Shown here piece after piece: positions 168-623 of a stretch of DNA of 11,672 nucleotides. The notes beneath the pieces are model-generated. The model did not search any database and had not been told where the DNA came from. It saw only the letters and a list, made by a program, of their open reading frames with translations. Each line of letters opens with the position of its first letter. The first letter of the stretch is position 1. The position numbers were made by a program, and so were the translations under genes. The stretch is from a virus. Lineage: Duplodnaviria; Heunggongvirae; Uroviricota; Caudoviricetes. Location of the stretch: positions 1 to 11,672 of the IMG/VR virus record IMGVR_UViG_2879770953_000002, one strand, 5' to 3'.

Positions 168-623
168 TTAAATACCGAGTGGGAAAATATCATGGCCTTG
201 TTCTTGCCAACTGGTGAGTTGCTGCTGTTGGGCGGAGGTTCGATTTTCACCGCACCACACCAGCAATGTACGGCCTTCGAATAGTTCAGGGCGTAGTTGA
301 TTGAGCGAGTGGGCGAGCGAGGACATCAATGCGCCATCCTTGTTGACTGGCAATCCAGCCCTCCAGCCACAGACGGGTGGTATCCTGAATATTCCAGCCA
401 ACCACCAGCGCATCTTTACCCTGTTTTTTACGTGCCGAAGCCAGACAAATGGCGATGTAGTTGATCAGTACGCCGTCGAGGATCGCCAGCAGCGCCTGGA
501 GAGTCGGTTGTTGGCACTGAAGCCGTCGGCGCAGAGGAATAAACAGATGTGTGGTGAGTGTCTGGGCGGGGTAATCCTGACCGCGCTCTTTGATCCACGT
601 TCGCAGGCTATGTAGATTGCCGC
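168..623 (-). pseudogene. mlrA: mlrA (yehV) MerR-family regulator, 3' segment, frameshifted
   Basis: Minus-strand translation from 620 downward reads GNLHSLRTWIKERGQDYPAQTLTTHLFIPLRRRLQCQQPTLQALLAILDGVLINYIAICLASARKKQGKDALVVGWNIQDTTRLWLEGWIASQQGWRIDVLA, then runs into a stop at 286-288. The protein continues in another frame (HSLNQLRPELFEGRTLLVWCGENRTSAQQQQLTSWQEQGHDIFPLGI, stop at 168-170). The frame break coincides with a tandem GCGAGCGA at 313-320. This segment joins seamlessly to 1934-2168 once IS629 and one copy of the CGC duplication are removed. Confidence 0.8.
621..623. repeat. 3-bp target-site duplication (CGC), left copy, flanking IS629
   Basis: CGC immediately outside the IS629 left inverted repeat; an identical CGC sits at 1934-1936 outside the right end. 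Removing the element and one copy restores an uninterrupted mlrA reading frame (..LTYLQS-G-NLHSL..). Confidence 0.85.

Follow-up and report, generated by a model that had tools for sequence, protein, structure and literature searches.

The interrupted mlrA gene

The window, by which we mean the whole stretch of 11,672 nucleotides analysed here, contains a broken copy of mlrA (yehV), the gene for a MerR-type activator of csgD, which in turn controls curli and cellulose. The identification as mlrA, made in the first-pass annotation, is borne out by the RefSeq annotation of matching E. coli loci and by the Pfam domains MerR_1, MlrA_helical, and MlrA_C. Window positions 100–640 match the mlrA–yohO region in nearly all complete E. 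coli genomes, and the counterpart DNA there is annotated as mlrA and lies between btsS and yohO. In the window, yohO occupies positions 1–108, and related loci run on from it into yehW, yehX, yehY, and osmF; the btsS (yehU) side of the locus lies past a prophage, outside the window. The position of the gene, between yohO/yehW and btsS (yehU), is orthologous. The features of the locus, together with the evidence used to assign them, are as follows.

168–326, minus strand: 52-aa ATG-initiated open reading frame (MSSLAHSLNQ...PLGI), from gene callers and Pfam (MlrA_C, profile positions 34–77)
168–623, minus strand: mlrA 3′ fragment, nt 281–732 plus 4 extra bases, from alignment; the rest of MlrA_helical, and MlrA_C
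286–288, minus strand: premature TGA stop in the shifted frame, would-be codon 206, from translation
313–320, minus strand: 4-bp tandem duplication in mlrA, from the sequence, alignments to intact mlrA, and genome distribution
621–623 (left) and 1934–1936 (right), no strand: CGC target-site duplication of the IS629-type element, mlrA nt 281–283
624–1933, minus strand: IS3-family element of the IS629/IS1203 type, 1,310 bp, in mlrA codons 94/95, from repeats, domains, and RefSeq name
1934–2167, minus strand: mlrA 5′ fragment, nt 50–283, from alignment; att-core identity extends to about nt 44 at 2173
2167–2206, minus strand: prophage-to-mlrA junction, TTAATCC(C)TGTCACG, followed by the integrase stop codon
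2207–2978, minus strand: C-terminal remnant (3′ two-thirds) of a prophage tyrosine integrase, its 5′ end cut by IS600, from domains
2979–4242, plus strand: IS600, 1,264 bp, joining the integrase remnant to a tail-fibre gene
8719–10362, minus strand: intact ipaH effector gene, 547 aa, LRR and NEL domains, RefSeq name IpaHe in EIEC
10678–11346: SAM-dependent methyltransferase gene, next to the ipaH gene

Three lesions interrupt mlrA, namely a prophage junction at about codon 16, the IS629/IS1203-type element in codons 94/95, and a frameshift. The frameshift had been described as separate from the IS and prophage events, and the coordinates agree, the IS element lying at 624–1933 and the prophage junction at about 2167. 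Each lesion strikes a different domain: the prophage junction cuts the HTH at about codon 16, the IS element splits the helical domain at codons 94/95, and the frameshift falls in MlrA_C at codon 196. The MerR HTH, MlrA_helical, and MlrA_C are not found together in one open frame, and because the domain set is broken at three places, the locus is a pseudogene and not a functional member of the mlrA family.

The insertion element has the length, terminal repeats, orfA/orfB domains, and target duplication of the IS629/IS1203 type. Its terminal repeats (TGAACCGCCCCGGG) lie at 624 and at 1920–1933, orfA (1553–1879) and orfB (666–1556) contain HTH_Tnp_1 and rve domains, and the RefSeq name of matching copies is 'IS3-like element IS1203 family'. 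At the other interruption, the mlrA promoter and the first ~16 codons are absent from the window. The phage side of this junction (2167–2186, minus strand) is in frame with mlrA and reads IGLPLIPVT.., against ..TIGEVALLCDINPVT.. in the native gene; the phage thus supplies a divergent replacement for the mlrA 5′ end.

When the IS629-type element and one target copy were removed in silico, mlrA nt 50–732 became collinear with the reference, from which the reconstructed gene differs by a 4-bp insertion and four substitutions, three of them amino-acid changing. These three, R55C (~2059), M68I (~2020), and G80V (~1983), all fall within the 234-bp 5′ fragment, which has no synonymous change relative to E. 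coli, and the best E. coli matches to this fragment lack all of them. Intact MlrA is reportedly an extremely conserved protein, those of diverse STEC strains and K-12 differing at one residue only (PMC3874044).

The 4-bp duplication and the reading frame

The plus strand reads GCGAGCGA at 313–320, with GCGA at 313–316 and again at 317–320 as first described, in the context ..gagtgggcgagcgaggacatc... Position 321 is a G too, which makes the period-4 tract 9 nt long and allows the unit to be read equally well as CGAG (314–321); on the minus strand, which is that of the gene, the duplication reads CTCG/CTCG or TCGC/TCGC. The duplicated bases correspond to mlrA nt 583–586, the insertion falling after nt 582–586 at codon 195/196.

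As a bare 8-mer the repeat was rejected as a statistical outlier, the window containing 51 perfect 4-mer tandem pairs as compared with 41 ± 8 in shuffled sequences. Since such pairs are common in the window, what gives this one significance is the comparison with intact mlrA. In the best E. coli matches, 525 window bases align with 521 genome bases. Alignment to the intact mlrA of two E. coli strains, which had been proposed as the check, revealed a single 4-column gap at the duplication, no further indel in the 3′ fragment, and, besides the gap, one synonymous change only. In the gap region the references, which have a single GCGA, read GATGTC----CTCGCCCAC, and the window, with its four additional bases, reads GATGTCCTCGCTCGCCCAC. 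Against every intact reference, then, a 4-bp tandem duplication puts the 3′ part of mlrA out of frame, as the first-pass annotation had maintained.

Both frames quoted there are present in translations of the minus strand. One runs across the duplication and ends in ..GWRIDVLARPLAQSTTP before a stop (over a longer stretch, ..QQGWRIDVLARPLAQSTTP and stop), and the other ends in ..HSLNQLRPELFEGRTLLVWCGENRTSAQQQQLTSWQEQGHDIFPLGI and stop. The shift occurs after Ala196, so that ..DVLA is followed by nine aberrant residues (RPLAQSTTP) and the premature stop. The notional shifted product has 205 residues and lacks the last 47 native ones. On the intact reference, Pfam places MerR_1 at residues 4–72, MlrA_helical at 81–155, and MlrA_C at 162–238, from which it follows that a shift after residue 196 removes over half of MlrA_C. 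The duplication alone would truncate MlrA_C, and the protein would probably be inactive as a result.

It had also been claimed that removal of 4 nt yields a continuous protein of the expected 243 aa. This removal does rejoin the two 3′ frames, but a 243-aa MlrA also requires loss of the IS629-type element with one 3-bp target copy, and it requires the return of the first ~16 codons, which lie past the prophage and outside the window.

The native mlrA stop codon is retained at 168–170. Because the duplication puts an ATG into the downstream frame that ends there, the 52-aa open reading frame at 168–326 exists solely through the duplication. Gene callers in many assemblies report it as an MlrA_C fragment; it is probably not a real gene.

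Genomes carrying the duplication

The whole window is 100% identical to the CP026098.1 chromosome, that of S. flexneri FDAARGOS_74, which is of serotype 3a according to a published table. We surveyed genomes by megablast with a duplicated 48-mer centred on the duplication and designed so that single-copy genomes give no megablast seed. This 48-mer was found in 0 of 5,426 complete E. coli genomes, EIEC included; the single-copy 44-mer, which served as the positive control, was found in 5,398 of the 5,426.

Related loci were obtained by several routes. The integrase remnant encoded at 2207–3004, looked up by exact match, led to 10 chromosomal loci, CP026098.1 among them. The 52-aa open reading frame is indexed in 2,364 blocks of a public assembly collection, and each of 10 places among the matches listed is a chromosome or a large contig showing the same surroundings. 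For the 81-aa open reading frame, the longest across the duplication, an exact look-up found no record. Scans of a metagenome contig collection with a duplicated 34-mer and 22-mer gave no match, and hence no contig with the duplication but not the IS element.

The identical 48-mer was present in 21 of the 21 related loci fetched, a set that includes the window's own (CP026098.1) and covers serotypes 2a, 3a, 4b, and 5a as well as 'E. coli' ECMA0423. Among the carriers are M90T, sequenced in two separate projects (CM001474 and CP037923), ATCC 29903, and strain 8401 (CP000266.1, serotype 5). The published table lists CP026788.1 as ATCC 29903 (2a), CP026792.1 as 61-4982 (4b), and CP037923.1 as M90T (5a). 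The duplication, the prophage junction, and both IS629 junctions are common to the 21 loci, save that one IS629 junction differs in one of them (L010, see below). M68I and G80V likewise occur in each of the 21. R55C occurs in five only (L005, L006, L008, L018, and L020, the window's own locus among them), which indicates that substitutions kept accumulating after the lineage had begun to diversify, and that the gene went on decaying once the other lesions were in place. The duplication is a fixed lineage mutation in the S. flexneri genomes examined, and the duplicated 48-mer may offer a simple marker for the S. flexneri lineage, as far as can be judged from the complete E. coli genomes, the S. 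flexneri loci, and ECMA0423.

A scan of a species-representative genome collection returned a sole carrier, CP178302.1, the genome of ECMA0423, which has been described as a river isolate with ipaH, sigA, pic, and sitA and serotype O13:H14. This locus (L003) has M68I and G80V as well as the duplication and the IS629 and prophage junctions. Sharing all the lesions of the S. flexneri carriers, ECMA0423 falls with them and, despite its filing as E. coli, is probably an isolate of the S. flexneri lineage. Over 2.5 kb its locus shows 16 mismatches and 6 gaps against the window, which may be assembly noise.

Two further loci have peculiarities of their own. In CP032513.1 (L010, ~11100–11126), the 40-mer across the junction between IS629 and the mlrA 5′ fragment was not found and the coordinates are offset by 18 bp, which suggests a small strain-specific deletion near this junction. 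In CP034931.1 (L015), a group II intron reverse transcriptase (RVT_1 and GIIM domains) lies at 3575–5098 within the IS629-type copy that splits mlrA, so that the intron forms a fourth layer of insertion at the mlrA locus in one S. flexneri genome.

The closest known cases are STEC and EIEC strains, E. coli O157:H7 among them, in which the same gene is disrupted by a prophage at the same proximal site. Insertion at this site reportedly limits curli and biofilm formation, with loss of MlrA-dependent csgD expression, and curli returned in two of four prophage-interrupted strains when mlrA was supplied on a plasmid (PMC3874044). Apart from the prophage, mlrA in these E. coli is unbroken, carrying one GCGA and no IS629, whereas S. 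flexneri has two further lesions, three amino-acid substitutions, and a prophage cut to a remnant by IS600. The prophage junction itself is identical in EIEC FDAARGOS_943 and other E. coli genomes, and the remainder of mlrA in FDAARGOS_943 is uninterrupted and has a single GCGA. At this EIEC locus (L024, 3021–3722), PGAP annotates a 233-aa 'MlrA' starting from an ATT codon in phage DNA, a predicted hybrid.

A separate short duplication is found in the mlrA of E. coli MEI008 (L025, NZ_CP074680.1, ~655–680), where an 8-bp unit (GGCTGGAG/GGCTGGAG) is repeated in tandem some 50 bp upstream of the site in S. flexneri and in the same domain. The frame is shifted here too, and the mlrA CDS that PGAP annotates is lengthened, at 789 nt. 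This case differs from the one described here in site and unit length; it is known from one genome only, and it is the sole interruption in the aligned 3′ part. Short tandem-duplication frameshifts therefore recur in mlrA. The frameshifted pseudogenes of Shigella are of the same kind, small indels in a pathway (curli, biofilm) that is damaged elsewhere too: csgA and csgG of S. flexneri are pseudogenes (PMC6854044), and S. flexneri genomes contain pseudogenes by the hundred, M90T having 769, 406 of them frameshifted (PMC7132871). Compared with other Shigella frameshifts, the duplication stands out only for lying in a gene already hit twice and for its lineage-wide fixation. In the literature searched (mlrA/yehV together with Shigella), we found no paper on the duplication or on the state of mlrA in Shigella, and in the supplement of the M90T paper text matches fell within protein-sequence letters only.

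Origin of the duplication and decay of the locus

The inserted bases repeat the adjacent bases and are absent from the ancestral allele, and when a 4-mer insertion matches its neighbour exactly, a tandem duplication made during replication is the best reading. Replication slippage is the most likely mechanism: a nascent strand ending in ..GCGAG would have re-paired one G back and copied CGAG twice. The ancestral microhomology at the unit ends amounts to 1 nt (G-CGA-G), which is compatible with slippage but not diagnostic of it, and slippage on 1 nt of microhomology has a weak substrate, which counts against it. The first-pass annotation had called the repeat a typical slipped-strand duplication. 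Slippage is still the most plausible origin, but it is one that we infer from a product formed on 1 nt of microhomology, and this product would fit a template switch too; from the surrounding sequence, a double switch through the nearby GAGCGAG (303–309) could give the same result.

Two other explanations of the extra bases were considered and rejected. One is an error of sequencing or assembly that put the four bases into the record, the chance of which we consider negligible. The identical 48-mer occurs in separate assemblies, including two M90T projects and strain 8401, the open reading frame that depends on the duplication is indexed in 2,364 blocks of the assembly collection, and a 4-bp insertion outside a homopolymer is atypical as a platform error; the recurrence of the same duplication across separate assemblies excludes an artefact of this kind. 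The other is that the direct repeat is the footprint of a lost transposable element, left behind as its target duplication. The genome is rich in IS elements, IS3-family members make target duplications of 3–4 bp, and the IS629-type copy some 300 bp away made one of 3 bp. Against this, the two GCGA copies have no leftover IS sequence between them, and no element was present at this site in any related genome looked at. Excision of a bacterial IS, moreover, normally takes one target copy or leaves IS remnants, and E. coli and Shigella are not known to possess the end-joining repair that makes clean footprints. We therefore judge a footprint to be very improbable.

The interpretation that we consider very probable is that the duplication arose spontaneously and represents one step in the decay of an mlrA gene unused by the host-restricted S. 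flexneri lineage. It would have become fixed in the ancestor of the S. flexneri genomes examined and then been inherited clonally; its neutrality and its timing are, likewise, what we infer. In its present setting the duplication would have no added effect, the mlrA promoter and the first ~16 codons being lost and the gene being split at codons 94/95. Since every carrier has all three lesions, any order among them would fit, and whichever came first, the other two are redundant. The duplication might thus have been the first, possibly adaptive, mutation to inactivate mlrA in the S. flexneri ancestor, abolishing MlrA-dependent csgD activation, with IS629 and the prophage later entering a dead gene. 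Truncation of an otherwise conserved domain, the joint fixation of three lesions, and the pseudogenization of curli genes in S. flexneri (PMC6854044), which fits an early loss of the pathway, speak for such a sequence of events. It nevertheless appears possible rather than likely, because no genome has the duplication as its only lesion (it is in 0 of 5,426 E. coli, and in 21 of 21 carriers the IS element and the prophage accompany it), and because the same phage junction in E. coli and EIEC without the duplication means that prophage insertion does not depend on earlier inactivation. Given three lesions whose order nothing indicates, the prior for the duplication coming first is about one in three.

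A role for the 52-aa open reading frame must be weighed as well. That this frame, which covers the C-terminal half of MlrA_C, gives rise to a small protein with its own function could be argued from its ATG with AAGGA 10 nt upstream, from its being called by gene finders in many assemblies with identical sequence, and from the report that almost all M90T pseudogenes are transcribed (PMC7132871). Recent clonal descent would, however, produce identity across assemblies anyway, a promoter for the frame was not identified, it comprises just half a domain, and the mlrA fragment adjoining it accumulates amino-acid changes, all of which leaves expression as a functional protein a very slim prospect. 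Similarly far-fetched is the broader proposal that the duplication was the original adaptive MlrA knock-out in the S. flexneri ancestor, or else the source of a translated, MlrA_C-derived micro-protein of 52 aa that contacts the partners of MlrA in its c-di-GMP module. These partners are DgcM and PdeR/YciR.

Returning to gradual decay, the duplication is an ordinary secondary pseudogene lesion of a kind that is thoroughly known. The mlrA gene of S. flexneri has been inactivated three times over and its decay is continuing, in keeping with what is known of Shigella, which has lost curli and biofilm functions.

The prophage next to it has decayed too. IS600 joins the integrase remnant directly to the tail-fibre gene, which means that most of the prophage has been deleted. 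In other S. flexneri strains the tail-fibre region contains extra IS1 insertions together with a fragment of a fimbrial gene, and in some the integrase remnant is missing altogether. At the far end of the prophage remnant lies the gene for an IpaH-type T3SS E3 ubiquitin ligase; this ipaH cargo persists while the phage and its target gene, mlrA, decay.
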